Shown here piece after piece: positions 2,269 to 24,750 of a stretch of 64,000 nucleotides of DNA. The notes under the pieces are model-generated. The model was not told the origin of the DNA, made no database searches, and saw only the letters and a program-made list of their open reading frames with translations. The stretch's first letter is position 1. Each line of letters opens with the position of its first letter. The DNA comes from a virus (Duplodnaviria > Caudoviricetes). The stretch lies in IMG/VR virus record IMGVR_UViG_3300028175_000001, one strand, 5' to 3'. A program made the position numbers and the translations under genes.

Positions 2269-2643
2269 TTAAATCATTTTTCCTAAAATCATGCCAAAGT
2301 CATTAGGTAAATGGTAAATTATATTTTTTTCATCTAAAAGTGTTTTAACTTGATCATATATGGATTCATCAAAATCAAAATACCACATATAATCTTCTGC
2401 CCATTGCCCAGCACATGAAACCAAAGAAAGCAATGTTGAATTATTAGCAGTGTGTTTATATTCATTTTTAACATATCCAGATGTAGTAGGATCAAAAGTG
2501 CATATTAACGATGATGTTTGTAAATGTATTTTATGAAAGTCTGTTAAATCTGGAACAGGTTCAATATCACAATCCAATACAAATTCATTATCAACTATTG
2601 TTAATGTTGCTTCTATCTCTATTCCGCTCTCTGTTAAAGGCAT
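2269..2643 (-). CDS. Hypothetical protein
   Basis: ORF-track frame 2269..2655; ATG at 2643 with GGAG upstream and overlap with the previous stop is the more likely start. Confidence 0.6.
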   Translation of the reverse strand: MPLTESGIEIEATLTIVDNEFVLDCDIEPVPDLTDFHKIHLQTSSLICTFDPTTSGYVKNEYKHTANNSTLLSLVSCAGQWAEDYMWYFDFDESIYDQVKTLLDEKNIIYHLPNDFGMILGKMI

Positions 2644-3221
2644 ATTCCGCTCCAAAAATCATCCCAAATAAGTTTATCTGCTGAATCATAAGGTCTAAAC
2701 CATTTATCCCCAACATGCATTTTTTTAACACCATCAAATGGAAGTTCGACCCAAAATAATAAGCGAGGTTTCCATTCTGGATTTAATTTCCAATTTTCCC
2801 AATGAAGAACACTACCTAAAAACGAATCCATTAATAAATCGTCACCTAAATACAAATAATTTATAATTTTACTGCCTAATTTTCTTAACAAAAGAGGATT
2901 TTCTAAAATAACAAAAACAGGTAGTCCATAAGCAGAATCAGGAAGTTCATCTAATGATTGCTCGTTAAATGTATGTATTGTTGCACCTGTTTGTTGTAAA
3001 TCATTCTTAATGGCTCTCATCATCTGAACTGCATGAATTTCATATTGTTCCATATCTAAGTCAGAATTAATATTATTATCAGGAAATAAAGATAAGGATA
3101 CATTCATAAGAAAATGATTAATCGCAATATTAGAACCATTAAGATGTGTAGGATATAAATCTTTTTTGAGAGAATTCGTCCAAGCAGTTTTAAATATTGT
3201 TCTTCGTTCTTCGGGAGTCAT
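2634..3221 (-). CDS. Hypothetical protein; paralog of the hidden frame at 20674..20853
   Basis: 195 aa; residues 111-128 (LLRKLGSKIINYLYLGDD) and 182-193 (DKLIWDDFWSGI) recur in the hidden frame; ATGA overlap with upstream gene. Confidence 0.7.
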   Translation of the reverse strand: MTPEERRTIFKTAWTNSLKKDLYPTHLNGSNIAINHFLMNVSLSLFPDNNINSDLDMEQYEIHAVQMMRAIKNDLQQTGATIHTFNEQSLDELPDSAYGLPVFVILENPLLLRKLGSKIINYLYLGDDLLMDSFLGSVLHWENWKLNPEWKPRLLFWVELPFDGVKKMHVGDKWFRPYDSADKLIWDDFWSGICL

Positions 3222-3718
3222 AATGATATTCCTTTTCGGTCAAAATATTCCGTTATACTATGCATAAAATCATAAATATATGCCCATTTCATATGAAATT
3301 GAGGCCTCCCCTCCTTACTTTGCTGTAAATATTCCATCACGGAACTATTAGGATCAACAGTAGGATATGATGTATATAAATTTTCAAGAAAAGCATCAAA
3401 ATGTTCTTGACCATATTTCGTTGCTAACGAATTATATCCATTTATTATAGTATTTATTCTCGTAGAATACGAATGAATATGATCAGGTCCAGGATGTAAT
3501 TGTTTATCGATATATGTTCGACCTTCTTCTACGGTATCATCTGTATATTGAGTATCATCTATGATAGTCTCTTTTGTAAATCTAATCTTTGATGTTGAAT
3601 GAATTAAACAATGAAGTTCTATTAATAATGTATCATCATCTAGTTCATCTTCCATTTTTAACTTTGACCACAGAGGAGATGTATCTATAGTCGGAAATTC
3701 TTCAGTAATTCTTCCCAT
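3218..3718 (-). CDS. Hypothetical protein
   Basis: 166-aa acidic ORF with AAGGA RBS, coupled to its neighbours. Confidence 0.65.
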   Translation of the reverse strand: MGRITEEFPTIDTSPLWSKLKMEDELDDDTLLIELHCLIHSTSKIRFTKETIIDDTQYTDDTVEEGRTYIDKQLHPGPDHIHSYSTRINTIINGYNSLATKYGQEHFDAFLENLYTSYPTVDPNSSVMEYLQQSKEGRPQFHMKWAYIYDFMHSITEYFDRKGISL

Positions 3719-3727
3719 TTTATATCC

Positions 3728-4621: not shown

Positions 4622-5718
4622 TCTCTTTCAGGGATCATAGGCTTCATAAATTTGTTATAAACCATAGTATCTTCAACACGGGACTGTAAATTAAGAATGT
4701 TTCGTATATCTTTACGTGTTTCTGTAAATTGTGTTTTATAGGGTTCTTGAGAATAATAGTTATAATCTTCAGGAATTAAATGACAATAATTACATGGTGT
4801 ACGGTATGCTACTCGTTCATCTACAGGACCTATTCTATTATGTAAAGTTATAGAATTATCAAAAATACATATATCATTATTTTGCTGATATTTATGGTGA
4901 TAAATATATTCATCTACAAATAATTCTTTGTCTAAATCATCTAAAAACTTAGTTCTCTCTACGGTGCCAGGAGAATAGTGTAGTCCTTTTATTCCTCCAG
5001 GAGATGTAATGACCAGTGGAAGTTCAATCGGTTCAAACGTTTGATTCCACCGAAATAAATCATCTTGATCTTTGTCAATTTCAGGCGCAGTTTCATAATT
5101 CTGATATTTAAAAATGATGGTCATATCATCTAATTCTCTTTTAAAAGAATCTCTTTGCTTCTCGTACCAAGAAGCAGTAGTAGCAAATCCTGTTGAAGTA
5201 CCAACCATTCCTTTTATGCCCATTAAAGCAATTCCTGGATTAAATACAATTGATCCCGGTTCATTAGAGTGCCAAAGCAATTCTCCTTCAGCAAACATTC
5301 CTATGGCCTTTCCGTTTTCTTTTATACCAGATATACGGTGTAGTTGAGATTTCCAAGGAATCTTTTCCCCTATAAATTCATCACCTCCGGCCCCCATCCA
5401 AGCTAAATCTTCTGCATGTTTTCGGTCTTCGTCTTCTATAAGATTACGTTTAAATAGACTATAGAAATTGCTTATTCCCAATTTCTCTTTATATTTTTTT
5501 CTAATCCTATATCCATCTAAAATAAAAGGATCACCCCAAAGAATCATTTTTCGTTCAAATTCATTAGGATGAATATCAACACCTCTAATGATTGTTACTA
5601 AATCAGTAAGATGGTCTTTTCCTAGTTCTATCCAATCATTATCAGACATTTCTGCTAATGATATATCATCTATAAATCGACCATAATCACCGAGTCCGGG
5701 TATTTTACTAGTTTTCAT
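4591..5718 (-). CDS. TauD/TfdA-family Fe(II)/2OG dioxygenase
   Basis: N-terminal IPGLGDYGRFIDDI, LLWHSNE (HxN instead of HxD) and C-terminal DICIFDNSITLHNR typical of TauD. Confidence 0.75.
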   Translation of the reverse strand: MKTSKIPGLGDYGRFIDDISLAEMSDNDWIELGKDHLTDLVTIIRGVDIHPNEFERKMILWGDPFILDGYRIRKKYKEKLGISNFYSLFKRNLIEDEDRKHAEDLAWMGAGGDEFIGEKIPWKSQLHRISGIKENGKAIGMFAEGELLWHSNEPGSIVFNPGIALMGIKGMVGTSTGFATTASWYEKQRDSFKRELDDMTIIFKYQNYETAPEIDKDQDDLFRWNQTFEPIELPLVITSPGGIKGLHYSPGTVERTKFLDDLDKELFVDEYIYHHKYQQNNDICIFDNSITLHNRIGPVDERVAYRTPCNYCHLIPEDYNYYSQEPYKTQFTETRKDIRNILNLQSRVEDTMVYNKFMKPMIPEREWKNNDLVRK

Positions 5719-6515
5719 TGCTTACTCCGTTCATATTTTTCATTTCCCATATCTTCTGCAATGTCTTTTATTATATCAAATACTAATTTCTGAAGATCAA
5801 AATTATACGTAAAGATAAATTCATAATAATTTTCACCCGGTAATGGTGCAGTTCGTAATAATGCTGGTTTCCAAAATCCAGTATTAAAACTTAACGTAAT
5901 TCTATTGTTCGTTTGTAGAAAATTAAAATTTTCATTATCAACCAATTCATTTTTTTCCCAAACTTTATTAATAGCAGTTCTTAAAAGAGCAGTTAAATAA
6001 TTTAATCCATCAATTGAACACGCTGTCCATGTTACATATGCTCTACTCTGTGATGATTCATTAATTAAATGTCCCTCACATGATCCAAAAGTTCTAATAC
6101 CATCAAACACGTTGAAAACATCAACTAACGGCTTAATGCCCGTTTCTATTTCAAAAGTATCATTGGTCACACCTCCTCCCATAGAACCACTAGACAAATC
6201 TTCAGTTGGCAAAAGGTCTAATTCATTAAATAAGGCTATATCTTCAGTAGAATTTATATCTTTCCAATTATAACCAATTTCATATTTTTTAAGAAATTCA
6301 CTAAAAACACTTATTAATAGTTCATATTTTAGATTAGCATGTCCACAAATTAATACATATTCTTTTTTTCTTTTCGCTCGTTCAATGTCTTGATCATTAC
6401 CGCTAATCTTATCTACTAATGAAATTAATAACTTATTTAACAGGTCCACTCGAATTTTCGAATCAGGATCATGTACAATAATATAATTCTGTCTCCACGT
6501 ATTAATTGTAATCAT
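5715..6515 (-). CDS. TYW3-like 'SCEGH' protein, paralog A
   Basis: ETGIKPLVDVFNVFDGIRTFGSCEGH resembles the TYW3 N-terminal D-x2-I-x6-N...T-x2-SC-x-G motif; aligns along its length with 16353..17174. CDS is solid, function is weak. Confidence 0.45.
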   Translation of the reverse strand: MITINTWRQNYIIVHDPDSKIRVDLLNKLLISLVDKISGNDQDIERAKRKKEYVLICGHANLKYELLISVFSEFLKKYEIGYNWKDINSTEDIALFNELDLLPTEDLSSGSMGGGVTNDTFEIETGIKPLVDVFNVFDGIRTFGSCEGHLINESSQSRAYVTWTACSIDGLNYLTALLRTAINKVWEKNELVDNENFNFLQTNNRITLSFNTGFWKPALLRTAPLPGENYYEFIFTYNFDLQKLVFDIIKDIAEDMGNEKYERSKQ

Positions 6516-7300
6516 ATTTTTCTCAAAAATTTCTCTATAATAAAAACATTTAAAAAATCTGTCTCATACCATTTATCTGACATTTTCGTATTATATGCAC
6601 TAGGATCATAATGGTGATTATTATGTAACATTGATCCAGTAAAACCAGACAACCATTGCCCGAGTGTATTGTTTGTACTTTTATCTGTAGTTTCAAAATT
6701 ACGATAGCCCCACATGTGTCCTATAGTATTAACTAAACCTCCAGTATGAAGTGTTATAATACTAGGTAATGCAAAAAAGAAAACAGGTATTCTCCAATCA
6801 ATTAATGCAGTTAAAACAAGTGGTGGAACAACTATAGTCAAATAATTTCTATGTAATAATTTTAAGAACGGATCTTTCACAAGATCAGCATACAGTCTAT
6901 GTTCATATATTTCCTGTCTCCAATTAGTAAACCATACATCAAAAGGACTTAAATAATGTGGCGAATGAGGATCTTCAGGTGTGTCAGATTTCTCATGATG
7001 ATATCTATGAAATGCAACCCACGGAAATTGAGTTCCTTGGTATATAAAGATTCCGCATATAGCCATAAATTTATGGGCCCAAGATTTTGCTTTAAAGCTT
7101 CTATGCGCAAAATATCTATGGGCGCCTATTTCTCCTCCTATATGTCGAAACAATATAACTCCTACAAGAGTTAACCACAGCCAGTACCATGAACTATATA
7201 ACAATCCTATTACTGATGCAATATGAAATAAAATCATGAAGCTAAAATATGCTTGCCATGAATTATTATACTTTGAGATAATTTTTAATAAACTTCCCAC
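6512..7300 (-). CDS. Membrane fatty-acyl desaturase (Delta9-like)
   Basis: Three His boxes HRYFAH, HRYHH, HNNHH; hydrophobic segments; GYRNFET motif; GTG start. Confidence 0.9.
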   Translation of the reverse strand: MGSLLKIISKYNNSWQAYFSFMILFHIASVIGLLYSSWYWLWLTLVGVILFRHIGGEIGAHRYFAHRSFKAKSWAHKFMAICGIFIYQGTQFPWVAFHRYHHEKSDTPEDPHSPHYLSPFDVWFTNWRQEIYEHRLYADLVKDPFLKLLHRNYLTIVVPPLVLTALIDWRIPVFFFALPSIITLHTGGLVNTIGHMWGYRNFETTDKSTNNTLGQWLSGFTGSMLHNNHHYDPSAYNTKMSDKWYETDFLNVFIIEKFLRKI

Positions 7301-8003
7301 AATAGTCCCTTTCTTTTCCTGTTACATTTTCATCCCAATTACTAGGATCTTGATGATGATTATTATGCAATCCACTTCCTAATGTTAAATCATTAACCCA
7401 CCAATTGTTTGTACTTTTATCTGTAGTTTCAAAATTACGATAACCCCATTTATGACATACAATATTAACTAATGCCGCGCCATGAATAATTCCTACACTG
7501 GGTATACTAATTAAAAACACAGGCAATCTCCAATCTATTAATGACAATAGTAAAAAAGTTATACCTATGATATAAAAATAATATTTATGGCTTTTTTTGT
7601 ATATCGGATCTTTTAATAAATCAGCATAGTGTTTTATGGGCAAATTAACTTTCCGCCACAATGTTAACCAAACCCTCCACCAAGAAATAATATGAGGTGA
7701 ATGGGGATCTAATTCTTCATCAGAATTCATATGGTGGGCCCTATGCGCTATAGCCCAGGAGATAGGGGAACCATAACAATTAAATATTCCTAATGTTGAT
7801 AACAAAAAATGTCTTATTGGACCTGTCTCAAAAGAGTTATGCGCAACATACCTATGATTACCTATTTCACTTCCAAATTTACCAAACAATAAAAATCCAA
7901 TAGGAATCCATAGATACCACGGCAATGGAGAATATATAATTCCTATTACTGCTAAAATATGATTCAATATCAAAAGTATTCTTACACCTATTTGATGTGT
8001 CAT
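7266..8003 (-). CDS. Membrane fatty-acyl desaturase (Delta9-like)
   Basis: His boxes HRYVAH, HRAHH, HNNHH; start moved to ATG 8003, which forms an ATGA overlap with the upstream stop. Confidence 0.9.
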   Translation of the reverse strand: MTHQIGVRILLILNHILAVIGIIYSPLPWYLWIPIGFLLFGKFGSEIGNHRYVAHNSFETGPIRHFLLSTLGIFNCYGSPISWAIAHRAHHMNSDEELDPHSPHIISWWRVWLTLWRKVNLPIKHYADLLKDPIYKKSHKYYFYIIGITFLLLSLIDWRLPVFLISIPSVGIIHGAALVNIVCHKWGYRNFETTDKSTNNWWVNDLTLGSGLHNNHHQDPSNWDENVTGKERDYCGKFIKNYLKV

Positions 8004-8272
8004 TTTGATAGAAAATCCGCACTCTGTAAAGTTTGTGCTAATTGCTGTTGCCACAAAGTTACATCTCCTGTAACTTTTCCGCGACTTGTTAAATTAAACT
8101 GTTCGGATAAATTATTCAAACAGTCCAATATTATTTCTTCTTTCTTATTTTCTGGTTGACCCGCAGTTGCAATAAGAGCAATCCATTCCTGACATCCACC
8201 CGGGTATGAACCATAAATCGTATTTTCAAGTGATGTCTTTAATATTTCACTTACTTTTTCTATATTGCCCAT
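8000..8272 (-). CDS. Hypothetical protein
   Basis: ATG 8272 lies 1 nt after the upstream stop and the TGA overlaps the next ATG, consistent with translational coupling. Confidence 0.6.
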   Translation of the reverse strand: MGNIEKVSEILKTSLENTIYGSYPGGCQEWIALIATAGQPENKKEEIILDCLNNLSEQFNLTSRGKVTGDVTLWQQQLAQTLQSADFLSK

Positions 8273-8273
8273 G

Positions 8274-9050
8274 TTATTCTCCAAAATCATGATAAGTTTG
8301 TTTTTCTGTTATTGATTCTTTCACTCTGATATCGTTCCATTGCTGTTTTGTCATTCCATGTACTTGAGATTCGTGATCTATGTCCATAAACATGATCAAA
8401 CTATGTCGTTCTTTTTTTGTTGAATTTGATACCCTATGGGGAGTAGATTTTAATTTATTTTGGGTCCACCACTGCATAAAATCACCACAATTAACTATTA
8501 TAAAATCATCACCAGGATGTTTTATCAAAGTCCATTCGCCATCAATGCATACTTCATATTCTTCTACAGGATCACATACATGCACTAATGTCAATGTTCC
8601 GAAATCACAATGACTGCCTAATCGATTATTTCCTATTTGATCTTTATAATATTTTACAAATATCAAATCATTACTTGATTTCTCGTGTTTCAGTGTTATT
8701 GAATTAGGCGGCAATTTCATATATTCTTCAATAGCATATAATATATCACACCCAACTTTTATATATTGGCTCCTTATAGTATTTACGCACTCCCAATCAT
8801 CAGACATATTTTTTAGAACAACTCTTTCGTTTGCTTCTCCGGGAAACCTTTTTGAACTTGATCGACCTTCTTCGTACATAGGTAATGTCTTTAAATCCGC
8901 CGCTTTTAATTTTTCACGTAATTGTTCTAATGATCCTTTCATATCAATAAAAGGATTTACTACTAATAAAAAACCAGTATTTTTAAAACTATCTACAATT
9001 GATTTAGAATTCCAATCAGACGAATTAAATACTATTGAACTTGGAGCCAT
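8274..9050 (-). CDS. IPNS/DIOX-type Fe(II)/2OG oxygenase
   Basis: LGSHCDFGTLTL (HxD), VNCGDFMQWWT...STPHRV (distal His) and RHS (RxS 2OG-binding). Confidence 0.9.
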   Translation of the reverse strand: MAPSSIVFNSSDWNSKSIVDSFKNTGFLLVVNPFIDMKGSLEQLREKLKAADLKTLPMYEEGRSSSKRFPGEANERVVLKNMSDDWECVNTIRSQYIKVGCDILYAIEEYMKLPPNSITLKHEKSSNDLIFVKYYKDQIGNNRLGSHCDFGTLTLVHVCDPVEEYEVCIDGEWTLIKHPGDDFIIVNCGDFMQWWTQNKLKSTPHRVSNSTKKERHSLIMFMDIDHESQVHGMTKQQWNDIRVKESITEKQTYHDFGE

Positions 9051-11752: not shown

Positions 11753-11996
11753 TTGCTTTTCGCTCTACCATATTATATAAATCGTTTATTGTTGTTGCTT
11801 TTTGAAACTCTTCTGCATCTAAGGCAATATTAAAAGTATCTTCAATAATTATCATTGTTTCTAAAATATGAATAGAATCAATTTCTAAATCTAAAGCAAT
11901 TTTACTATCGGACTTTATCTCTGGAAAATCAATACCCGCGGCCGCTTCTTCAAACGCGGATTTACATTTTTCTTCAATTTCTTGTCGTGTGTACAT
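11745..11996 (-). CDS. Acyl carrier protein
   Basis: 83-aa acidic protein with DLEIDSIHILE phosphopantetheine-attachment motif and EDTFNI...TINDL. Confidence 0.88.
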   Translation of the reverse strand: MYTRQEIEEKCKSAFEEAAAGIDFPEIKSDSKIALDLEIDSIHILETMIIIEDTFNIALDAEEFQKATTINDLYNMVERKANA

Positions 11997-17187: not shown

Positions 17188-18516
17188 TCAAGTACCTCTT
17201 TGAAGTTTCTTTATGTTATGATTATCTTTAGATTGTAAAAAAGCCAAGGTCGAATTATAATCCTTATAATCAAAAGATTTAATTTTTTCTTCAGTTTTAA
17301 TTTTAAAATTTGTTAACCTTTTATATTTTTCATTCTTTTGCCACGCCTCATCTATCATCTCAAACATATCTACTTCTTCTTTATCTGCATTTGGCTCATA
17401 AAATCCTGTCCTACCCCCCCAAAGCGTCTTAATATATGTTTGAAAAGTTGGCATATCTTTACATATTTCTACCATTCTTATCGCTTCATCATAATATATA
17501 TGAAACAATTCGCACACAGAATCGATTGGTTGATTACCATTTCTTAATTGCGAATATGTACAACCTGCATTACACACTTTATATAATCTACATCCTTTAC
17601 ATTTATCAAATGCTAAAGGATTAAATACAGATTGAAAATAATCAAAATTATATTCATCGCCTTTCATTGGTAATAATTTCTTTGAGCCAAATCTTGCACA
17701 TGGATAAAATGTTCCATCTACTGCCATAATAGAACCATGATGACCAGCAAAACACCCGAATGCTCGTTTTTGTTTAGTTAATCCTAATAACATGTCTTGT
17801 AGGGGAAGATTAAACATTCCATTAGATATTAATTTTCCTTCATCATAATATTGTATGGTTCTATCTGCCAGTCTTCGACATTCCACTCTAAATTTATGAA
17901 TATCGTCTAGGGACCAAATATCATCTCTTACAATAGAAAAATCAGGAGCAGGAATACCGAAATCTACTAAAAATTCAAAATTTTCTGTCATTGAATCAAC
18001 ATTGCCTGGAAATATCATAATTTTACATGTTTTATTATGTTTTGTAACTTTCTTTATAAGATGTTGTCTATCACTGTACATCTCTAAAACATTATTGTAT
18101 CCTTTATTCTCTCCAAAATTTTTAATAATAGGTCTTGATTCGTTTGCTGATATACCATCAAAACTCCAACTAACTCCAATCTGATTATCTAATATCCAAT
18201 CAGCAGTTTCTTCGTTAATTAACGATAGATTAGATATCATAGTAAGACCAACCAATCTATCCTCATATTCAGGAACTTTAACTTTTTTACAAACATGATC
18301 CATCAATGGCACATTTAATAGTGGTTCGCCCCCAAAAAAAGATAAATGAAATTGTTGACCATGGGCTTTTGATCTTTGAATTAATTGTAAAAATTCTGGC
18401 CAAGCCTTATCAAAAATTTCAGGAGTCATAAATTTATCAACATTAGCAACATAGCAATACGGGCACCCCAAATTGCATTTTTCTGTTACAGATATTTCTA
18501 ATTGATAACTAGGCAT
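17188..18516 (-). CDS. Radical SAM/SPASM peptide maturase-like enzyme
   Basis: CNLGCPYC, FFGGEPLLN, SFDG; full SPASM cysteines CFAG...YPC...CKGCRLYKVCNAGC...C; start reassigned to ATG 18516 (ATGCCTAG overlap). Confidence 0.92.
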   Translation of the reverse strand: MPSYQLEISVTEKCNLGCPYCYVANVDKFMTPEIFDKAWPEFLQLIQRSKAHGQQFHLSFFGGEPLLNVPLMDHVCKKVKVPEYEDRLVGLTMISNLSLINEETADWILDNQIGVSWSFDGISANESRPIIKNFGENKGYNNVLEMYSDRQHLIKKVTKHNKTCKIMIFPGNVDSMTENFEFLVDFGIPAPDFSIVRDDIWSLDDIHKFRVECRRLADRTIQYYDEGKLISNGMFNLPLQDMLLGLTKQKRAFGCFAGHHGSIMAVDGTFYPCARFGSKKLLPMKGDEYNFDYFQSVFNPLAFDKCKGCRLYKVCNAGCTYSQLRNGNQPIDSVCELFHIYYDEAIRMVEICKDMPTFQTYIKTLWGGRTGFYEPNADKEEVDMFEMIDEAWQKNEKYKRLTNFKIKTEEKIKSFDYKDYNSTLAFLQSKDNHNIKKLQRGT

Positions 18517-20059
18517 ATTTGCTCTCTGTAGTTTCTGATCTCTTTGGTAAGCTTGATATATTAAAAACTGCACCTATATTCTTGGCCGTTTCTGAAGTGG
18601 GCTCTTTGGATAAACCAGATATAACAGGAGTTTGCTGTTCAATAGAATTGACTTCTAAATTATGACCCTGCGAATAATTTCCTGGTCTATTCATCATAAT
18701 TATTGAATCCGGATTCTTTTTAATCCACAGGGTTCTCCATGCTTTAGATACAGGCTCCAGTGTTTTCCATACTTGACACAATTGATGATTTGCTGGATGA
18801 TTTTGCCATTTTTTACCAGCATCCTGTTCTTCACCAAATTTTGCATCTGCGGCATCAAATGAACCCGCAGGACACTTTAAACAAAAATCCGCTGTACATG
18901 TATTACACGCTAATGTTCCATCTGTTCTAAATTCATCCAAATAAGAACGATATAATGATGTTGTTTCATCCACAAATTTTTGCATTTGCATACCAGATTC
19001 CATTAAATCGCCTCTTACATGATCCTCTCTTTGTCTATACATACACCCATGACAAGGATATGTTTTACCGTCTAAATCAATTGAAAGATAATTAATACCA
19101 GCCGCACAATTTTGTTTTTCTTTTCTGAACCATCTAAAGTGATTTTCTAAATTAATATCATGATCTATACTATATTTCACAATTTTCATTAAATTCACTC
19201 TTAGATCCTTTAAGTGACCCATATATTCTTCTTCCTTAACTGCACCATCAATTCTATCTGGATCTGTACTGTGAGTGTCAGGAGTGGGTCCATATGATTC
19301 TCCATTATCATAATGCCATTTCCAAACATCAAAAAGATATTTAAAATTGCGAGATGATATGACTGCTTTAATACCTATAGAAAAACCATCAGATTTTAAC
19401 TCTTTATAAGTTGCATAAACAGTTTTAGATAATTTTTCACTTTCTCCTGCTTTAGTTCTACGTTCCATCGTATTAACAGGTTCACCATCAAAAGATACTT
19501 GAATATGTAAACGTGATTGTTGCGGCATATCTAATCTATTTCCCAACAGACCTTTTAATTCTATTAACTGTTTTTTATACTTTTTAAGATAAGTTCCATT
19601 AGTATAGAACATAAAACATACTTTTTGAGTATCAGCCAATCTTTTCATTATATCTTTGCAAAAAAGAAAATTAGCAAAAGGTTCTCCGCCCCACCAATTT
19701 ATATTAATATCTCTATACCTATCCATATCCAATGACCTAACTGTTTTTTCTATATCTTCAGGAGTCATCTCTGTTTTTTCTTGATATTGTGATGACAATC
19801 CGCACGATTCTCCTTCAGAACAATATGTACAAGCAAGATTACATTCACTCGTTACATTAACATCTAAATTAAAACTTTGCATTGGATTAAAATTATTTGA
19901 CATTGCACCACCACCCTGTCCCTGGGGCATTGTTGATCCCCCCATCTGTTTTAACATTTTTTCTTGTTCTTCCATCGTTTTTCGCATTTGCATCATTTGC
20001 TGTTGCATTTGTTCGGGTGACATTTGTTCTTTTATAGGATCAAATCGGATATTATTCAT
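18509..20059 (-). CDS. Radical SAM/SPASM peptide maturase-like enzyme
   Basis: CNLACTYC, WWGGEP, FYTNG, VSFDG; CAAG...YPCHGC...CNTCTADFCLKC...C; Gln/Met-rich N-terminus; starts 3 nt after the Cys-rich gene. Confidence 0.92.
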   Translation of the reverse strand: MNNIRFDPIKEQMSPEQMQQQMMQMRKTMEEQEKMLKQMGGSTMPQGQGGGAMSNNFNPMQSFNLDVNVTSECNLACTYCSEGESCGLSSQYQEKTEMTPEDIEKTVRSLDMDRYRDININWWGGEPFANFLFCKDIMKRLADTQKVCFMFYTNGTYLKKYKKQLIELKGLLGNRLDMPQQSRLHIQVSFDGEPVNTMERRTKAGESEKLSKTVYATYKELKSDGFSIGIKAVISSRNFKYLFDVWKWHYDNGESYGPTPDTHSTDPDRIDGAVKEEEYMGHLKDLRVNLMKIVKYSIDHDINLENHFRWFRKEKQNCAAGINYLSIDLDGKTYPCHGCMYRQREDHVRGDLMESGMQMQKFVDETTSLYRSYLDEFRTDGTLACNTCTADFCLKCPAGSFDAADAKFGEEQDAGKKWQNHPANHQLCQVWKTLEPVSKAWRTLWIKKNPDSIIMMNRPGNYSQGHNLEVNSIEQQTPVISGLSKEPTSETAKNIGAVFNISSLPKRSETTESKYA

Positions 20060-20062
20060 TTT

Positions 20063-20674
20063 TTATTTCGAGTTATTACAGTTACATGGACAGTGATTAC
20101 AATCACATGGACAAAAATTACAGTTACATGGACAAAAATTACAGTTACAAGGACAGAAATTACAATTACAGGGACAAAAATTACAATTACAGGGACAAAA
20201 ATTACAATTACAGGGACAAAAATTACAGTTACATGGACAGTGATTACAATTACATGGACAAAAATTACAATCACATGGACAAAAATTACAATCACATGGA
20301 CAAAAATTACAATTACATGGACAAAAATCACAATCACATACGCACACAACTTTCCATTCATCGAGTTTTGTTACCAGATCGTCTATATGTGCGGCGGCTA
20401 TTAAATCTCCGACACTTACAGCACCATAAGATAATGTTGGTGCGGGACTTGGTGGAGTTTGGGTATATAACTTACTTACTATTTCTCCACGCAATTCATT
20501 CCAAATTTGTGCGGCGACAGGATCTGCCATGCTGGTCCAAGATGAAATCGCTATACTTCTTCTTGTAAACTCATCATTTAATGAAGTTCTGCAAGTAGTT
20601 ATCTCTGACTGCTGAATTAGTGTACCAGCTTGTGCAGGTAAACCAGTTAAATTGGTAGGACATGGCGAACCCAT
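20063..20674 (-). CDS. Cys-rich heptad-repeat protein; putative radical SAM substrate
   Basis: 110-aa N-terminal domain, then CV + 12 x C[ND]C[ND][FH]CP + CNCNNSK; 41 Cys in 203 aa; directly upstream of two rSAM/SPASM genes. Confidence 0.8.
   Translation of the reverse strand: MGSPCPTNLTGLPAQAGTLIQQSEITTCRTSLNDEFTRRSIAISSWTSMADPVAAQIWNELRGEIVSKLYTQTPPSPAPTLSYGAVSVGDLIAAAHIDDLVTKLDEWKVVCVCDCDFCPCNCNFCPCDCNFCPCDCNFCPCNCNHCPCNCNFCPCNCNFCPCNCNFCPCNCNFCPCNCNFCPCNCNFCPCDCNHCPCNCNNSK
20066..20338. repeat. 21-bp coding tandem repeat (12 full units plus 1 partial)
   Basis: Units such as ggacaaaaattacaattacat on the plus strand; variation is synonymous or N/D and F/H in the Cys frame. Confidence 0.95.
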
Positions 20675-20853
20675 TATATTTTACTCCAAAATTTATTCCG
20701 TATTAATTTATCATCATTTCCCAAATAAAGAAAATTTGTGATTCTTGAACCAAGTTTCTTTAATAACATTTCTTCATCTATCTCACTATCAAAATCAAGA
20801 TTACCCCAAAAAGGTGCATCAGTTATATTTGCATATTCCAATATCGTATACTT
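20674..20853 (-). pseudogene. Hidden 59-codon open frame without an in-frame ATG at its 5' end (frameshifted gene, readthrough extension, or 31-aa ORF from ATG 20769)
   Basis: Frame continues after the TGA of 20854..24750: KYTILEYANITDAPFWGNLDFDSEIDEEMLLKKLGSRITNFLYLGNDDKLIRNKFWSKI*; its TAA overlaps the next ATG; two motifs match 2634..3221. Confidence 0.6.
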
Positions 20854-23800
20854 TCATATTTTCACTTCAACAAATCCAGCATCACTATCAGACAATGCTA
20901 TTCCAATTAAATCGTGTTTATGTGATTTATATTCATATTTAGTTATAGATTTTCCTGCACCATCATTATAAGCCATAATAAGGTCCCCTTTAACACATCT
21001 TCCCACAATCTTAACTAATATTCTTCCGGTCAAACAAATAAAGATCATAAATTCATTTTTTCTCTGTTCCATACTATCATTCATCCTCAATCCAGGATTA
21101 TCTGAAACAACACCAGCATAAGGCATTTCAGCTTGATATAGAGTAACTTCTTTTTCTCCTCCAATTGATAAAACAGTTCCTGGATCATATACCAAATCAG
21201 ACTCATATCTCTCGGCCAAGTCAGACCAACTCGCTGATGTTGCTCTTCCATTAAATGTAACCGCATACATATCGTTATATACCATTGTAGATGTACCGAT
21301 ATCGTGTGTATTATTTGCGACAGGAACAATGGCCTTAGTTGTCATTGTTCCATCAAAACCAGAAGTTCCATATACTTTTAAAGCTGATAATCCAGTCACT
21401 CCACTTGAAGAAAAAATAGCACCATTAAAATACAATTCTGTTGGTGTAGTAATATCATTTACTCTATATCCAGAATACGCTCCAAGCGAAGATGATGATG
21501 CATAATATTGAACATATCCAGCGGCTCCTGCTGGACTGGTCGGCGCTCCATCAGCTCCAGAACTTCCAGCAGAGCCAGATGTTCCAGCAGTACCAGCACT
21601 TCCTGCACTTCCAGCAGAACCAGATGATGCATATGTTAATCCAGAAGAACCAGCAGTCCCAGACGTTCCAGAAGAACCAGCAGAGCCAGAAGTTCCCGCA
21701 GATCCAGACGTTCCAGCAGAACCAGAAGAACCAGAAGAACCAGCAGTACCAGATGATCCAGAAGTTCCAGAACTTCCTTCTCCAAAAGTTAATGCCGCCC
21801 AACCAGATATTGCAGTAGCAAAAACTAATTTAGCGGTATTTGAACTAATATAACGAATTGATTCTGGATAAATTACATCATAGTTAGAATCTACAACTTC
21901 AATATTTAAAGGTCTAACTCCTAAATTATGATTTATTAACCAAACAGAACTTGCTGAACCTTGAACATGAATCCAGGAACCACCATCTTGACCAGAAGAA
22001 CCAGCACTTCCAGCACTTCCTGCGGAACCCGCACTTCCTGCAGTTCCAGCAGAACCAGAAGAACCAGAAGAACCAGCAGTACCAGATGATCCAGAAGTTC
22101 CAGCAGAGCCAGATGATCCTGCACTTCCAGCACTTCCTGCACTTCCAGAAGAACCAGCAGAACCAGAAGAGCCAGCGGAACCAGATGTTCCAGCAGAGCC
22201 AGAAGTTCCAGCAGAGCCAGCACTACCAGCACTTCCTGCAGAACCAGCAGAACCAGCACTTCCAGCAGAGCCAGATGATCCAGATGATCCAGAAGTTCCA
22301 GCACTTCCAGAAGTCCCTGCGCTTCCAGCACTTCCAGCACTTCCAGCAGAGCCAGCACTTCCTGCAGTTCCAGCACTTCCAGAAGAACCCGCAGAACCAG
22401 CAGAACCAGAAGATGCATATGTTAATCCAGAAGAACCAGAGGAACCAGTAGAACCAGCAGAGCCAGCAGAGCCAGATGATCCTGCACTTCCTGCACTTCC
22501 AGAAGAACCAGCACTTCCAGCACTTCCAGCAGAACCTGCACTTCCAGCACTTCCAGCAGAGCCAGCACTTCCTGCACTTCCTGCAGAGCCAGATGATCCA
22601 GCACTTCCAGCACTTCCTGCGGAACCCGCACTTCCTGCAGTTCCAGCAGAACCAGAAGAACCAGCAGAACCAGATGTTCCAGCAGAGCCAGAAGTTCCAG
22701 CAGAGCCAGATGATCCTGCACTTCCAGCACTTCCTGCACTTCCAGAAGAACCAGCAGAACCAGAAGAACCAGCAGAACCAGATGTTCCAGCAGAGCCAGA
22801 AGTTCCAGCAGAGCCAGCACTACCAGCACTTCCTGCAGAACCAGCAGAACCAGCACTTCCAGCAGAGCCAGATGATCCAGATGATCCAGAAGTTCCAGCA
22901 CTACCAGCACTTCCTGCAGAACCAGCAGAACCAGCACTTCCAGCAGAGCCAGATGATCCAGATGATCCAGAAGTTCCAGCGGTACCAGAATCACCAGTTC
23001 TTGCGAATGAAGCAACAATTTCAGTATTGTTTTGAAAATTATTTAATGAAGAATCTAAAAATGTAACATCCACATAATACCATGAGGGATTTGTGGTATC
23101 AAATTCATTAATGCTGTATAAGAAATACTTTTCAGGAGCTGATTTATCATAAATTCGAAAATGGCCTTTTGGAACACTAAAAGCAACATCATCAATTGTC
23201 TGTAAGAAAGAATCAATTGTCGTGCCATCTTGATCAGTATCACTTATTCTCAATCTATTAGCAGTAGTGGGATATGTAAAAGCACCAGTAGTTAATGTAA
23301 ATGCCAATTTACCCGTACCTGGATCATTCGTTGATTGATCTGTACTGTAACGATATGCAAATGAAGCACCCCCAAAACCACCATCATGTCCAGATGAACC
23401 AGAAGTACCAACAGTCCCAGAACTTCCAGAACTTCCAGCAGAACCAGATGTTCCAGATGATCCAGAAGTTCCAACACTTCCAGAAGAACCCGCAGAACCA
23501 GCAGAACCAGAAGATGCATATGTCAATCCAGAAGAACCAGCAGAACCAGATGTTCCAGCAGAACCAGATGTTCCAGATGATCCAGAAGTTCCAGCACTTC
23601 CTGCAGAACCAGCAGAACCAGCAGAACCAGCACTTCCAGCAGAGCCAGCACTTCCTGCAGTTCCAGCACTTCCAGAAGAACCAGCAGAACCAGAAGAACC
23701 AGAAGATGCATATGTCAATCCAGAAGAACCAGCAGAACCAGAAGTACCAATTGGACCATCAGCTCCAGATGATCCAGAAGTTCCAGCACTTCCAGCAGAA

Positions 23801-24750
23801 CCCGCAGAACCCGCAGTTCCAGAAATTCCAGAAGAACCAGCACTTCCAGCAGAGCCAGCACTTCCTGCAGAACCAGTACTTCCAGAAGAACCTGCAGTTC
23901 CAGAAGTTCCCGCAGTTCCAGAAATTCCAGAAGAACCAGATGTTCCAGATGATCCTGCACTTCCAGCACTTCCTGCACTTCCAGAAGAACCAGCAGAACC
24001 AGAAGTACCAATTGGACCATCAGCTCCAGATGATCCAGAAGTTCCAGCAGAGCCAGAAGAAGCATATGTCAATCCAGAAGAACCAGCAGAACCAGAAGTT
24101 CCAATTGGACCATCAGCACCAGAAGTTCCAGATGTTCCAGCAGAGCCAGCACTTCCCGCAGAACCCGCAGTTCCAGAAATTCCAGAAGAACCAGCACTTC
24201 CAGCAGAACCAGAAGATGCATATGTCAAGCCAGAACTTCCGGAACTACCCGCACTTCCGGAAGAAGTATCCCCTCCTCCGCCTCCACCAGATTCTCCCCA
24301 ACCACTTCCACCGGCCACTCGTTGGGCAGTTAAAGTGGCTTTTTTACTAATCTTTTTAACAACTTCTTTAAAATTATCTAACTCTTTTACGAGTTTAGTT
24401 ACATCAGCATCATCACCAGATTCTCCCTTTTCTCCCATTGGTCCTATAGGTCCAATATCTCCTAAATCTCCCCTAGGACCCTGAACACCTTGTGGACCAA
24501 TTCTTCCTGATATTCCTTTAACGCCCACTTCGCCAGCAAGCCCCTTTTCGCCCTTTTCTCCCTTTTCTCCCTTAGGACCTACAGTGCCTTTAATTTCAAG
24601 AACTTTAACTGTTTCACCAGTAACAGGATCTAAAATTTCTTTTATATCCTCTACAAGTTCTTCTTTAGTTTTTTTTAATTGTTTTTTAGTATAAGCAAGA
24701 GAAGTTGCTAGAACCTTACTTAAATCTAAATCTTTTTGATCGTCTTTCAT
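20854..24750 (-). CDS. Giant collagen-like / Ser-Ala-Thr-Gly repeat fibre protein with C-terminal chaperone-like domain
   Basis: 20 Gly-X-Y triplets, three long [ST][AS]G arrays, globular inserts (YSTDQSTNDPGTG; WLINHNLGVRP) and C-terminal DLAERY...PGTVL...GVVSDNPGLRMN as seen in phage fibre C-termini. Confidence 0.75.
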   Translation of the reverse strand: MKDDQKDLDLSKVLATSLAYTKKQLKKTKEELVEDIKEILDPVTGETVKVLEIKGTVGPKGEKGEKGEKGLAGEVGVKGISGRIGPQGVQGPRGDLGDIGPIGPMGEKGESGDDADVTKLVKELDNFKEVVKKISKKATLTAQRVAGGSGWGESGGGGGGDTSSGSAGSSGSSGLTYASSGSAGSAGSSGISGTAGSAGSAGSAGTSGTSGADGPIGTSGSAGSSGLTYASSGSAGTSGSSGADGPIGTSGSAGSSGSAGSAGSAGSSGTSGSSGISGTAGTSGTAGSSGSTGSAGSAGSAGSAGSSGISGTAGSAGSAGSAGTSGSSGADGPIGTSGSAGSSGLTYASSGSSGSAGSSGSAGTAGSAGSAGSAGSAGSAGSAGSAGTSGSSGTSGSAGTSGSAGSSGLTYASSGSAGSAGSSGSVGTSGSSGTSGSAGSSGSSGTVGTSGSSGHDGGFGGASFAYRYSTDQSTNDPGTGKLAFTLTTGAFTYPTTANRLRISDTDQDGTTIDSFLQTIDDVAFSVPKGHFRIYDKSAPEKYFLYSINEFDTTNPSWYYVDVTFLDSSLNNFQNNTEIVASFARTGDSGTAGTSGSSGSSGSAGSAGSAGSAGSAGSAGTSGSSGSSGSAGSAGSAGSAGSAGSAGSAGTSGSAGTSGSAGSSGSAGSSGSAGSAGSAGSSGSAGTSGSAGTSGSAGSSGSAGTAGSAGSAGSAGSAGSSGSAGSAGSAGSAGSAGSAGSAGSAGSAGSSGSAGSAGSSGSAGSAGSTGSSGSSGLTYASSGSAGSAGSSGSAGTAGSAGSAGSAGSAGSAGTSGSAGTSGSSGSSGSAGSAGSAGSAGSAGSAGSAGTSGSAGTSGSAGSSGSAGSSGSAGSAGSAGSSGSAGTSGSSGTAGSSGSSGSAGTAGSAGSAGSAGSAGSSGQDGGSWIHVQGSASSVWLINHNLGVRPLNIEVVDSNYDVIYPESIRYISSNTAKLVFATAISGWAALTFGEGSSGTSGSSGTAGSSGSSGSAGTSGSAGTSGSAGSSGTSGTAGSSGLTYASSGSAGSAGSAGTAGTSGSAGSSGADGAPTSPAGAAGYVQYYASSSSLGAYSGYRVNDITTPTELYFNGAIFSSSGVTGLSALKVYGTSGFDGTMTTKAIVPVANNTHDIGTSTMVYNDMYAVTFNGRATSASWSDLAERYESDLVYDPGTVLSIGGEKEVTLYQAEMPYAGVVSDNPGLRMNDSMEQRKNEFMIFICLTGRILVKIVGRCVKGDLIMAYNDGAGKSITKYEYKSHKHDLIGIALSDSDAGFVEVKI
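21545..24270. repeat. Degenerate 9-bp coding repeat arrays (about 21545-21745, 21985-22995, 23390-24270)
   Basis: ccagcagaa/ccagaagaa/cctgcactt units; a near-identical block of ~290 bp occurs twice (about 22020-22310 and 22620-22900); six GLTYASSG interruptions. Boundaries approximate. Confidence 0.9.
24409..24588 (-). repeat. Collagen-like Gly-X-Y segment (20 triplets)
   Basis: GTV GPK GEK GEK GEK GLA ... GES GDD. Confidence 0.9.

Follow-up and report, generated by a model that had tools for sequence, protein, structure and literature searches.

A conserved 22-kb block of enzyme genes lies next to the portal gene in a T4-like marine myophage that is abundant and uncultured. The block is a genuine accessory region, conserved and composed of two linked modules, A and B; its gene families, motifs, conservation, and modularity, and its presence in many samples and RNA libraries, were observed directly. 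The best overall explanation, in which our confidence is about even, is that module A produces a thioether-stapled fiber-associated protein and that module B is a polyketide/lipid pathway. We could not find a description, for any phage, of polyketide/lipid genes and a carrier protein combined with three radical SAM enzymes and a Cys-repeat protein.

Boundaries of the block and the polyketide/lipid genes

The window is the whole 64,000-nucleotide stretch of DNA that was analyzed. Within it, the block (2269-24750) lies between the gp21 protease and portal genes and comprises 26 ORFs of at least 60 aa and one 55-aa ORF, in agreement with the earlier note, which had counted about 27 co-oriented genes between portal gp20 and the head-core/gp21 genes. 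These genes are co-oriented and tightly packed, and all ORFs from position 2 to 31618 are on the minus strand. A motif search of the block found no late-promoter motif inside it. GC content is 30-34% throughout the block and its flanks, with the exception of the fiber gene, whose 49% is explained by Gly/Ala/Ser codon repeats. The flanking features were the following.

24777..26459, minus strand: portal protein gp20, upstream boundary (PF07230, E 4e-178)
2243-2250, minus strand: T4-type late promoter motif TATAAATA, preceding the downstream head genes (motif search)
2..2208, minus strand: downstream boundary, four small head-region genes (192, 82, 106, and 132 aa) plus gp21
2-646, minus strand: gp21 prohead protease, downstream boundary region (PF03420, E 2e-35)

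The portal protein is 54% identical to cyanomyovirus portals, and gp22 and gp23 come after gp21 in independent contigs. In the cultured cyanomyovirus S-H38, the gp20-gp21 interval holds a single small ORF where the block sits here.

Module B extends over 3728-11996. Pfam scores were judged in bits against the gathering cut-off of each family.

11745..11996, minus strand: acyl carrier protein (ACP), 83 aa (PF00550, 30.1 bits versus 20.8)
11147..11752, minus strand: short-chain dehydrogenase-like reductase (SDR), 201 aa (PF00106, 26.3 bits versus 26.6, just under the cut-off)
10122..11150, minus strand: type III polyketide synthase (PKS), 342 aa (PF00195, 36.2 bits, and PF02797, 33.7 bits; cut-off 27)
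9769..10143, minus strand: AcpS-type phosphopantetheinyl transferase, 124 aa (PF01648, 41.8 bits versus 25)
9032-9790, minus strand: membrane desaturase (PF00487, FA_desaturase; three His boxes)
8274-9050, minus strand: 2OG-Fe(II) oxygenase, interleaved with the desaturases (PF03171, 2OG-FeII_Oxy)
7266-8054, minus strand: membrane desaturase (PF00487, FA_desaturase; three His boxes)
6512-7300, minus strand: third membrane desaturase (three His boxes; no Pfam match at E ≤ 0.01)
within 6512..9790, minus strand: 96-aa ORF, interleaved with the desaturases
5715..6515, minus strand: 266-aa SCEGH-motif protein, paralog of 16353-17174 (BLASTP E 6e-14, alignment)
4591-5718, minus strand: TauD-like 2OG oxygenase (PF02668, 35.6 bits versus 27)
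3728-4621, minus strand: Rieske-type oxygenase alpha subunit (PF00848, Ring_hydroxyl_A, 59.6 versus 24.9 bits; PF00355)

The enzyme families named in the earlier note were thus all recovered by Pfam matches, here and in module A, with the SDR and the third desaturase recognized by motifs and His boxes. The D-S-I phosphopantetheine site is visible in the ACP sequence, the SDR (65-100% identity in relatives) has the motifs TGVTSGIG (TGxxxGxG) and YTAGK (YxxxK), and the Rieske oxygenase has a CxH...CxxH motif. The best solved relative of the PKS is Mycobacterium tuberculosis Pks11 (4jao, E 1e-29), with which its intact Cys-His-Asn triad aligns. About 20 metagenomic clusters match this PKS at 67% identity or more; the next matches, from Bacteroidota, are only 27-30% identical. 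Judged by these matches, the PKS clade is confined to viruses and separated from cellular enzymes by long divergence. The third desaturase is 42% identical to the L024 ortholog of the one at 7266-8054, and the nearest cellular relatives of the desaturases, about 50% identical, are named stearoyl-CoA delta-9 desaturase. The 266-aa SCEGH-motif protein matched phrog_21654 weakly; its AF2 model had a pLDDT of 63 and gave weak fold matches to TM1457/Prp.

We infer all chemistry, substrates, and biological role of the block. The likeliest product of module B is an unsaturated, oxygenated alkyl-pyrone or alkyl-resorcinol lipid. AcpS would activate the phage ACP, and the three delta-9-type desaturases would desaturate an acyl chain held on ACP or CoA. 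The Pks11-like type III PKS would extend this chain with malonyl units to a lipid of the alkyl-pyrone or alkyl-resorcinol type, which the SDR and the Rieske, TauD, and 2OG oxygenases would then reduce and oxygenate. Family searches of the block recognized neither an acyl-loading enzyme (FAAL or acyltransferase) nor a thioesterase, leader protease, or exporter, and the block is therefore not established as self-contained.

An unlikely alternative is that the region is a hyperplastic one that collects independent auxiliary metabolic genes, with the desaturases, ACP, and oxygenases remodeling host membrane lipids and no dedicated product pathway. In marine myophages, large variable regions hold auxiliary genes, and radical SAM cassettes occur there near fiber genes (PMC7029224; PMC5332604); desaturases, 2OG oxygenases, and AspH are common in these phages as single auxiliary genes (PMC7029224). 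The similarity of the desaturases to cellular delta-9 enzymes fits such a collection, as does the shuffling of gene order among relatives, in which the TauD gene, a trio of small genes, and the desaturases change place, and a 55-aa relic (see below) records rearrangement. However, simple membrane desaturation needs no private carrier protein, phosphopantetheinyl transferase, and type III PKS. The ACP, SDR, PKS, and AcpS genes are contiguous, with overlapping ends, in every relative (65-100% identity), one variant adds a FabA dehydratase beside the PKS, and the virus-only PKS clade also argues against a loose collection. A dedicated lipid pathway is the reading of module B that we prefer.

Fiber, Cys-heptad protein, and radical SAM enzymes

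Module A extends over about 11974-24750, plus the trio of small genes at 2269-3718.

20854..24750, minus strand: collagen-like fiber, 1298 aa, the largest gene of the interval (PF01391, E 2e-92, 11 stretches)
20677..20841, minus strand: 55-aa ORF, an N-terminal relic of the first trio gene (sequence identity)
20063..20674, minus strand: Cys-heptad protein, 203 aa (110-aa helical N-domain, then 13 C-P-C-N-C-[N/D]-[F/H] heptads)
18509..20059, minus strand: radical SAM/SPASM enzyme 1, 516 aa (PF04055, 45 bits)
17188..18573, minus strand: radical SAM/SPASM enzyme 2, 461 aa, with a 442-aa start in gene callers (PF04055, 42 bits)
16353..17174, minus strand: 273-aa protein with an FDG...SCEGH motif, paralog of 5715-6515 (BLASTP E 6e-14 between paralogs)
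15956..16381, minus strand: 141-aa conserved protein (51-52% identity, same position in L004, L023, and L024)
14604..15956, minus strand: radical SAM enzyme 3, 450 aa, extended by about 110 aa at the N-terminus and with a C-terminal cluster of 4 Cys (PF04055, 39.7 bits)
12753..14611, minus strand: three conserved proteins, 304, 69, and 245 aa (no family match in profile searches)
11974..12756, minus strand: AspH-like 2OG oxygenase, 260 aa (PF05118, 32.2 bits versus 22.6)
2269..3718, minus strand: trio of small proteins, 166, 195, and 128 aa (with the Cys-heptad gene in all relatives)

The collagen-like fiber was absent from the list in the earlier note. Its sequence combines a short stretch of canonical collagen with long blocks of G-S/T-A/S triplets and with globular inserts, and its C-terminal domain is conserved. 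In relatives, that domain is 49-72% identical and is encoded immediately upstream of the Cys-heptad gene or of the trio; fiber length differs by sample (1072-1334 aa).

The Cys-repeat protein reported earlier is present, and its repeat contains 39 Cys in 91 residues (43% Cys). Across 11 homologs, with overall identity down to 45%, the Cys columns are invariant. Heptad position 4 is occupied by N, Q, or D and position 6 by N or D, giving two C-x-x-[N/Q/D] motifs per heptad. The N-terminus, M-G-S-P-C-P-T-N-L-T, is strongly conserved. The protein had no Pfam or NCBIfam match and hence none to a curated target family, and AF2 yielded no confident model of the repeat.

Profile searches gave no family match for the trio proteins. 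In L005, L006, L023, L024, L030, L031, and L032 the trio lies between the fiber and Cys-heptad genes (two of the three are seen in L032), and in L015 it follows the Cys-heptad gene; in this genome, it has been relocated to the far end of the block. The 55-aa ORF, called as a gene in independent contigs too, is 45% identical to residues 25-62 of the L005 180-aa protein at the same position and 33% identical to 3218-3718. Among the remaining companions, the 304-aa and 245-aa proteins have counterparts of 33-49% identity in L004, L023, and L024, and a homolog of the 273-aa SCEGH-motif protein lies directly 3' of the Cys-heptad gene in L028 and L029.

All three radical SAM enzymes have a CX3CX2C motif, at residue 73 in enzyme 1 and residue 120 in enzyme 3. 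Enzyme 1 has 7-8 C-terminal Cys (7-Cys SPASM pattern), a pattern shared by enzyme 2, and the cluster in enzyme 3 comprises C348, C352, C355, and C358. Their best NCBIfam matches are the peptide-maturase families PapB, the CXXX-repeat family, CcpM, SCIFF, and TIGR04463, at 63-135 bits, far under the equivalog cut-offs (at least 340), so that the reaction type is assigned by analogy only. PapB was the top match for enzyme 1 (75 bits) and enzyme 2 (135 bits, E 2e-39). The best solved relative of enzyme 2 is CteB (5wgg, E 2e-13), and a radical SAM protein of Campylobacter phage CP220 is 33% identical to it. The N-terminal region of enzyme 3 aligns with N-terminal parts of the HxsB, CcpM, and SCIFF maturase models. 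These O2-labile enzymes share the block with O2-dependent ones (desaturases, 2OG and Rieske oxygenases), which is a counter-point to be recorded.

The Cys-heptad protein is presumed to be the substrate of the radical SAM enzymes, and the likeliest function of module A, by analogy, is thioether cross-linking of a fiber-associated protein. The enzymes would most likely install Cys-to-carbon thioether (ranthionine-type) cross-links along the heptad repeat, a chemistry that PapB and CrpC carry out on substrates with periodic Cys. The AspH-like oxygenase may hydroxylate the Asn/Asp positions of the repeat. The product would probably be a rigid, covalently stapled protein working with the fiber rather than a small secreted peptide; genomic context favors such a virion/fiber link.

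We consider it improbable that the Cys-heptad protein is instead a metallothionein-like metal or iron-sulfur binder, serving as an Fe-S store or scaffold or as a metal-stabilized fiber element. The T4 gp37 tip, with its His-coordinated iron sites, offers a possible parallel for the latter. The Cys content and C-x-C spacing of the repeat are typical of metal-thiolate proteins, several Fe-S enzymes are encoded in the block, and related T4-like environmental genomes carry genes for Fe-S assembly along with as many as 12 radical SAM genes (PMC5332604). Yet even in distant phages the Cys-heptad gene strictly keeps its place beside three SPASM-type enzymes, which are one-to-one orthologs. Positions 4 and 6 of the heptad are kept as residues that fit thioether acceptor motifs, and the enzymes resemble peptide maturases, not Fe-S assembly proteins. 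CrpC forms ranthionine links in a repeat protein that carries C-x-x-Q/D motifs (PMC13692751), and PapB joins Cys to Asp or Glu (PMC9413430).

Linkage and recurrence of the two modules

The block had been proposed to be one self-contained hybrid cluster, a claim that is not supported by comparison with L015, from a distant T4-like phage (TerL 46% identical). L015 carries a fiber C-terminal domain and a homolog of the Cys-heptad protein, with the repeat C-T-C-N-C-N-F. It also has three small ORFs, one of which is homologous to 2634-3221 at 24% identity, and one-to-one orthologs of the three radical SAM enzymes in identical order (43%, 49%, and 40% identity for enzymes 1, 2, and 3). The whole set lies beside fiber genes, just before gp13-15 (neck genes), and the fiber counterpart has a weak Peptidase_G2 IMC match. 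No PKS was found in L015. Because this set occurs without a PKS in so distant a phage, module A is older than the PKS/lipid module and separable from it, and the latter is an addition made in one subclade. The AspH-like gene also goes with the Cys-heptad protein in another variant, L029, where a 46% homolog lies two genes past it.

Bacterial PKS/FAS-RiPP hybrids suggest a further comparison, in which the block is one integrated pathway and the PKS/ACP lipid is covalently attached to the Cys-heptad protein that the radical SAM enzymes have modified. The result would be a virion or membrane protein that is both lipidated and cross-linked. All PKS contigs do carry the radical SAM module, adjoining and on the same strand, and the tight packing, the lack of an internal late-promoter motif, and the conserved Cys-heptad N-terminus are consistent with such a product. 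We nevertheless regard it as rather doubtful, given L015. In addition, Pfam searches of the block recognized no acyltransferase, GNAT, or condensation enzyme that would join lipid and protein, and the PKS clade is rare, present in two of eight IMG/VR contigs with the Cys-heptad gene (many of which end early). We retain the reading of two linked modules.

The earlier note had also taken the block to be phage-borne, and this holds: T4-type structural genes lie on either side, GC is even, and synteny is kept in diverged relatives. The exact portal protein occurs in 219 collection blocks, with the fiber gene next to it every time, and the exact 1630-2208 protein occurs in 281, with the same neighbors. 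Both junctions recur across dozens of independent marine assemblies from different samples and assemblers, on contigs of up to 175 kb. At least 14 marine DNA runs, drawn from about 10 studies, each contained every sampled word of 9001-19000. Contigs from three metatranscriptome studies covered 1-20000 at ≥99% identity, with uneven depth (about 45 at gp21 versus 2-8 in the block; a DNA run was flat at 11-15); being assembled contigs, they give no strand and may include DNA carry-over. Gene order is kept in diverged IMG/VR and ENA contigs at 50-100% amino-acid identity. An assembly artifact, or host DNA fused to a phage contig, for which the GC of the fiber gene is the sole composition anomaly and no support was found, is virtually excluded by the identical junctions in independent assemblies, by the arrangement retained in relatives, and by the lack of a close cellular homolog of the PKS or the Cys-heptad protein in a 5.8-billion-cluster protein collection.

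Comparison with known systems

Module A most resembles CrpA/CrpC (protein thioether cross-links in Methanococcus voltae, PMC13692751), PapA/PapB (freyrasin), and the SCIFF/CteB ranthipeptides, in all of which a SPASM-type radical SAM enzyme adjoins a Cys-repeat protein or peptide. Substrates of the CrpA, PapA, and SCIFF type likewise have an N-terminal recognition part and C-terminal periodic Cys repeats with C-x-x-Q/D or C-x3-D motifs. The phage enzymes best match the PapB, SCIFF, and TIGR04463 models, and CteB among solved structures, with scores far below every family cut-off. The phage-encoded system differs from these in having three distinct enzymes where they have one, a 7-residue repeat that contains three Cys, and a fiber gene as its neighbor, and no leader protease or exporter was found for it. 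The His-Xaa-Ser system (NCBIfam annotation) also pairs a short-period repeat protein, HxsA, with more than one radical SAM maturase (HxsB and HxsC, both among the NCBIfam matches of the phage enzymes), but its repeat is H-x-S rather than C-x-C-x-C-x-x, it is bacterial rather than viral, and the similarity is at superfamily level only.

Among marine T4-like phages, pelagimyophage and cyanomyophage host-recognition/hypervariable clusters have radical SAM cassettes by tail-fiber genes (PMC7029224), and TARA_ERS488813_N000010 is a radical-SAM-rich T4-like environmental genome (PMC5332604). A term search of both papers found no mention of polyketide, and they give no substrate or function for the cassettes. 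L015 shares their arrangement, with fiber genes and module just upstream of neck genes, whereas module A in this genome follows the portal gene.

For module B, the novelty claimed earlier held within the phage collection and literature searched, where the only phage-borne type III PKS was that of Streptomyces phage ZL12, a pseudolysogenic actinophage whose paper records just a Type 3 PKS call, without partner genes; the two enzymes are 24% identical over 68% of the query. Bacterial polyyne pathways (cay/pgn, PMC9828172) similarly place a dedicated ACP and three membrane desaturases in one cluster. They are defined by a fatty acyl-AMP ligase and a thioesterase, neither of which was found in the phage block, which has a type III PKS, an SDR, and non-heme oxygenases instead. 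Pks11 and the Bacteroidota alkylresorcinol/alkylpyrone synthases share fold family, length, and the Cys-His-Asn triad with the phage PKS, and its nearest cellular homologs, at only 27-30% identity, carry the latter names. In contrast to these cellular enzymes, the phage PKS comes with a private set of co-encoded partners: an ACP, AcpS, an SDR, three desaturases, and three or four oxygenases.

Gene order around the block and its occurrence in marine samples

All ORFs from the start of the window to 31618 were on the minus strand in the ORF listing, with a single exception described below. The genes that fix the position of the block are the following.

29966-31618, minus strand, TerL (Pfam)
27145-29466, minus strand, sheath gp18 (Pfam)
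26546-27133, minus strand, tube gp19 (Pfam)
24777-26459, minus strand, portal gp20 (PF07230, E 4e-178)
20854-24750, minus strand, collagen-like fibre of 1298 aa, directly after the portal; the largest gene of the interval, left unnamed in the earlier note
2-646, minus strand, gp21 prohead protease (PF03420), adjoined by four small ORFs

The co-oriented T4-like order gp17-gp18-gp19-gp20 ... gp21-gp22-gp23 is present, with gp22 and gp23 coming straight after the end of gp21 in independent contigs, and the block splits gp20 from gp21. The portal protein was at most 54% identical to those of cultured phages, the nearest being cyanomyoviruses. Cyanomyovirus S-H38 has one 63-aa ORF between gp20 and gp21, compared with ~22 kb and 26-27 genes in the window, where the earlier note had placed its enzyme block.

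The block is phage-borne and not a chimeric join, a concern that the earlier note had raised, since the same neighbours were found at both junctions in contigs from many JGI and ENA samples. The contigs examined reach 175 kb. The exact portal protein was found in 219 collection blocks and the exact protein of the ORF at 1630-2208 in 281. GC content is level through the block and its flanks, except in the Gly/Ser/Ala-repeat fibre gene. In 14 or more marine DNA runs, drawn from about ten studies, every sampled 31-mer of 9001-19000 was present; six metatranscriptome runs contained 37-75% of them. No match was returned when 2000-25000 was compared by megablast with 50,697 phage records.

Contigs from RNA libraries of three studies fully covered 1-20000 at ≥99% identity. 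Their summed depth was ~45 on the gp21 side versus 2-8 over the block, whereas depth in a DNA run used for comparison was flat at 11-15. Uneven RNA depth against flat DNA depth is consistent with transcription, of which contig-level data cannot be proof. The T4-type late promoter motif TATAAATA was found on the coding (minus) strand at 2243-2250, within the 60-bp gap ahead of 1630-2208, at 29507-29514, preceding gp18, and at 33540-33547 and 47467-47474, both preceding structural genes and also in short gaps. With 7 matches versus 13 expected, the motif has no overall enrichment, and it is its placement ahead of gp18 and 1630-2208, and that alone, which is suggestive. A motif scan of the window found no copy inside the 22-kb block; given the copies ahead of gp18 and 1630-2208, late transcripts that start upstream may run on through the block. 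Scans for sigma-70 promoters and terminators returned counts at or under shuffle expectation.

The sole plus-strand gene in the structural run lies between TerL and gp18 at 29563-29985. In independent contigs its counterpart has an HNH_3 match (PF13392), indicating a homing-endonuclease-like insertion. A 473-aa ORF at 31618-33039 (minus strand), between the small terminase region and TerL, is kept in independent contigs. Very large ORFs lie in series at 38813-63815 (minus strand; 2287, 593, 1413, 621, 1310, 1115, and 675 aa) and presumably encode baseplate and tail-fibre proteins.

The fibre gene, the Cys-heptad protein, and three radical SAM enzymes

The portal-proximal part of the block, referred to here as module A, comprises the collagen-like fibre, a Cys-heptad protein, three radical SAM enzymes, and an AspH-like enzyme, together with a trio of small proteins that in the window sits at the far end of the block (2269-3718).

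20063-20674, minus strand, Cys-heptad protein
18509-20059, minus strand, radical SAM enzyme, CX3CX2C at residue 73, SPASM-type 7-Cys pattern
17188-18573, minus strand, radical SAM enzyme, CX3CX2C at residue 33, SPASM-type 7-Cys pattern
14604-15956, minus strand, radical SAM enzyme, CX3CX2C at residue 120, only 4 C-terminal Cys

The C-terminal part of the Cys-heptad protein consists of 13 heptads of the form C-P-C-N-C-[N/D]-[F/H], with 39 Cys in 91 residues. The Cys positions were invariant across 11 homologs, among which heptad position 2 is P/T, position 4 is N/Q/D, position 6 is N/D, and position 7 is aromatic; each heptad thus holds two C-x-x-[N/Q/D] motifs. This conservation across homologs, rather than codon differences, establishes the Cys reading frame. 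Between heptad units, synonymous/non-synonymous differences numbered 13/13 in the Cys frame, against 14/12 and 9/17 when the two other frames were read. As the Cys frame does not stand out in these counts, the codon argument is unsupported on its own.

The protein had no Pfam or NCBIfam match, and thus matched no curated target-peptide model of the CXXX-repeat or Cys-rich families. Its sole match anywhere was phrog_26958, which falls on the repeat and is uninformative. A tblastn search of phage records gave no match, possibly owing to the low-complexity filter, and no description of the family was found in the papers searched. A language-model search returned PF27846 on 19% of one neighbouring cluster (score 0.86), as a lead only. 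An AF2 model from an 11-row alignment had a mean pLDDT of 51, with the repeat unmodelled. The N-domain belongs to a small family, with 5 representatives at 50% clustering, and has no paralog in the window.

Repeat-bearing genes of module A vary in length between samples: the fibre measures 1072, 1099, 1102, 1298, or 1334 aa, and the Cys-heptad protein 189, 196, or 203 aa, depending on repeat number. Many assemblies break at these repeats. In relatives, the first trio gene stands between these two genes; in the window, the N-terminus of that gene survives there as a relic, a 55-aa ORF at 20677-20841 (minus strand). Together with the intact trio at 2269-3718, this relic indicates that the block was rearranged in the window's lineage. 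An atlas feature search with a trio protein found nothing.

All three radical SAM enzymes exceeded the PF04055 cut-off; the Pfam SPASM score (16.7 bits) was under its cut-off of 21.5. Their best NCBIfam matches were PapB, the CXXX-repeat family, CcpM, SCIFF, CefB, HxsB/C, and TIGR04463, but every score stayed under the cut-offs of the named equivalogs PapB, SCIFF, CcpM, CefB, and TIGR04463, the highest being 135 bits versus 340 for PapB. The closest solved relative is the SCIFF maturase CteB. Radical SAM enzyme 2 (17188-18573) also resembles the radical SAM proteins (phrog_1802) of group II myophages of Campylobacter, with 33% identity across 79% of its length. In Campylobacter phage CP220 the protein is encoded at 16347-17450 of the record, and the 21 kb inspected there showed no homolog of the Cys-heptad protein. 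Read by eye, the heptad does not fit the PROSITE-type AspH consensus C-x-[DN]-x4-[FY]-x-C-x-C, and the AspH-like enzyme is therefore linked to it by gene context alone.

IMG/VR and ENA contigs keep the block order, at 50-100% amino-acid identity. Relatives with 88-93% portal identity have the fibre and then the Cys-heptad gene after the portal; in one variant the Cys-heptad gene is directly followed by genes for a protein with an S-C-E-G-H motif and the AspH-like enzyme. A phage with 52% portal identity carries the fibre domain, trio, Cys-heptad gene, and radical SAM genes downstream of the portal on the same contig. The most distant case is L015, a T4-like phage on a 157-kb contig with a TerL 46% identical to that of the window. 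Its fibre shares the C-terminal domain and is followed by a Cys-heptad homolog with C-T-C-N-C-N-F repeats and a 30% identical N-domain, then by three small ORFs, of which one is homologous to 2634-3221 at 24% identity, and then by three radical SAM enzymes. These are one-to-one orthologs of the three in the window, in the same order, at 43, 49, and 40% identity. The L015 module ends with a 2OG oxygenase and is located just upstream of the neck genes gp13-15. PKS is absent from L015. The fibre/Cys-heptad/radical SAM set is thus an old, separable module associated with fibre genes, and the single self-contained hybrid cluster proposed in the earlier note is not supported as such. The PKS/lipid set was seen only attached to module A, within one subclade.

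Two paralogous genes, one per module, lie at 5715-6515 and 16353-17174 (both minus strand) and encode proteins with an invariant F-D-G...S-C-E-G-H. Homologs are found directly after the Cys-heptad gene in the relatives L028 and L029. These proteins matched no family. An AF2 model (pLDDT 63) found nothing in the PDB by Foldseek at E ≤ 0.001; the top rows, for a TM1457/Prp cysteine protease fold, were weak (TM-score 0.22/0.46) and unreliable, a lead only. An atlas feature search returned DUF6919, MTHFR_C, and TYW3 (~0.80), likewise as leads.

The PKS/lipid gene set

The four non-heme iron oxygenases named in the earlier note (Rieske-type alpha subunit, TauD-family, 2OG-Fe(II), and AspH-like), AcpS, the type III PKS (both domains), the ACP, and the three radical SAM enzymes all scored above the Pfam gathering score. 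Two of its three desaturases did so as well (FA_desaturase); the third had no Pfam match and is supported by three His boxes and clear paralogy. At 26.3 bits the SDR narrowly missed its cut-off of 26.6, yet TGxxxGxG and YxxxK are both present in its sequence.

The N- and C-terminal Chal_sti_synt domains of the PKS scored 36.2 and 33.7 bits (cut-off 27). The PKS aligned to Mycobacterium tuberculosis Pks11 (E 1e-29), a long-chain enzyme that forms alpha-pyrones, and its triad of Cys (G-L-A-C-N-G-G), His (C-H-P-G-G), and Asn (G-N-M-S-A) aligned with the Pks11 catalytic residues and is invariant throughout the viral clade. About 20 metagenomic clusters were at least 67% identical to the PKS, and the next matches, at 27-30%, were from Flavobacteriia and Saprospiraceae and annotated as alkylresorcinol/alkylpyrone synthase. 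This gap in identity indicates a virus-specific, long-diverged clade. An IMG/VR profile scan with the clade recovered no contigs beyond the two known before. In the phage collection, the single other type III PKS was that of Streptomyces phage ZL12 (24% identity). A survey of phage biosynthetic clusters reports the same ZL12 case and describes such clusters as extremely rare in phages; of the clusters it found, only five were in a lytic phage.

AcpS scored 41.8 bits (cut-off 25) and the ACP 30.1 bits (cut-off 20.8), with the Ser attachment site D-S-I visible. The ACP, SDR, PKS, and AcpS genes overlap at their ends throughout and are syntenic in all relatives. The desaturases are of the delta-9 type, with ~50% identity to cellular enzymes. 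In the relative L023 a FabA-like dehydratase (11040-11465; PF07977, E 5e-29), which the window lacks, directly follows the PKS; the KS, KR, DH, and ACP set is complete in that variant.

In the pathway that these genes would encode, the phage AcpS would turn the ACP into its holo form, and the acyl chain would then be desaturated. The PKS could off-load the chain and extend it to an alkyl-pyrone or alkyl-resorcinol, which the SDR would reduce, with the FabA dehydratase added in one variant. The Rieske, TauD, and 2OG enzymes may then oxygenate the product. Bacterial polyyne clusters (cay/pgn), whose synthesis is thiotemplated, likewise have a dedicated ACP and three desaturases, but they also have a fatty acyl-AMP ligase and a thioesterase (PMC9828172), and family searches found neither AMP-binding nor thioesterase families among the block's proteins.

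A possible virion-tailoring system and its comparison with known systems

Two known enzymes offer an analogy for module A. PapB joins Cys to Asp or Glu (PMC9413430), and CrpC (2026) introduces ranthionine cross-links into a substrate of protein size whose repeats are C-x-x-Q/D (PMC13692751). By this analogy, the repeat of the Cys-heptad protein may be stapled by radical thioether chemistry, and the presence of three radical SAM enzymes for three Cys registers makes it attractive to suppose that each enzyme would serve one register.

Several observations suggest that the Cys-heptad protein remains whole and acts together with the fibre, instead of being released as a peptide. Its 110-aa N-domain is conserved, its gene keeps its place beside a fibre gene, the repeat number of both proteins is polymorphic between samples, and family searches found no protease or transporter family in the block that could supply a leader protease or exporter. 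The candidate substrate, at 203 aa and with its conserved 110-aa domain, is also not a short leader-core precursor.

The reading that goes furthest is one that we consider rather unlikely. It is a RiPP-type route to virion building, in which three dedicated radical SAM enzymes, each acting on one Cys register, would staple the 13 Cys-heptads of a fibre-associated protein, and the AspH-like enzyme would hydroxylate that protein. One subclade's operon would add an unsaturated polyketide lipid, made on a phage ACP, that decorates the particle or the infected-cell envelope. All components of the block are members of known enzyme families. If the reading is true, such post-translational tailoring of virions would be a new class, and the polyketide pathway the first of any T4-like phage.

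Radical SAM cassettes have been described in the fibre region of pelagimyophages (PMC7029224), and radical-SAM-rich T4-like environmental genomes were noted before (PMC5332604), the substrate being given in neither case. Should the chemistry be as we infer, viruses, and probably virion structure, would be added to the scope of enzymatic protein thioether cross-linking, which on a protein-sized substrate has so far been demonstrated in one methanogen only (2026), and lytic phages would gain polyketide lipid synthesis. As these genes are widespread in marine metagenomes and also turn up in metatranscriptomes, their products could matter in the ocean, where they could affect host recognition, particle stability, or infected-cell physiology.

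In lytic marine phages, an auxiliary gene usually encodes one isolated enzyme by which the metabolism of the host is boosted. The block, carried by an abundant T4-like phage, is unlike these, first, in its complete-looking polyketide/lipid module that depends on a carrier protein, in which an ACP with a PPTase of its own is joined by a type III PKS and a reductase as well as three desaturases and several oxygenases; second, in a three-enzyme radical SAM system adjoining a Cys-periodic repeat protein; and third, in the location of both systems within the late structural operon, beside the fibre gene.
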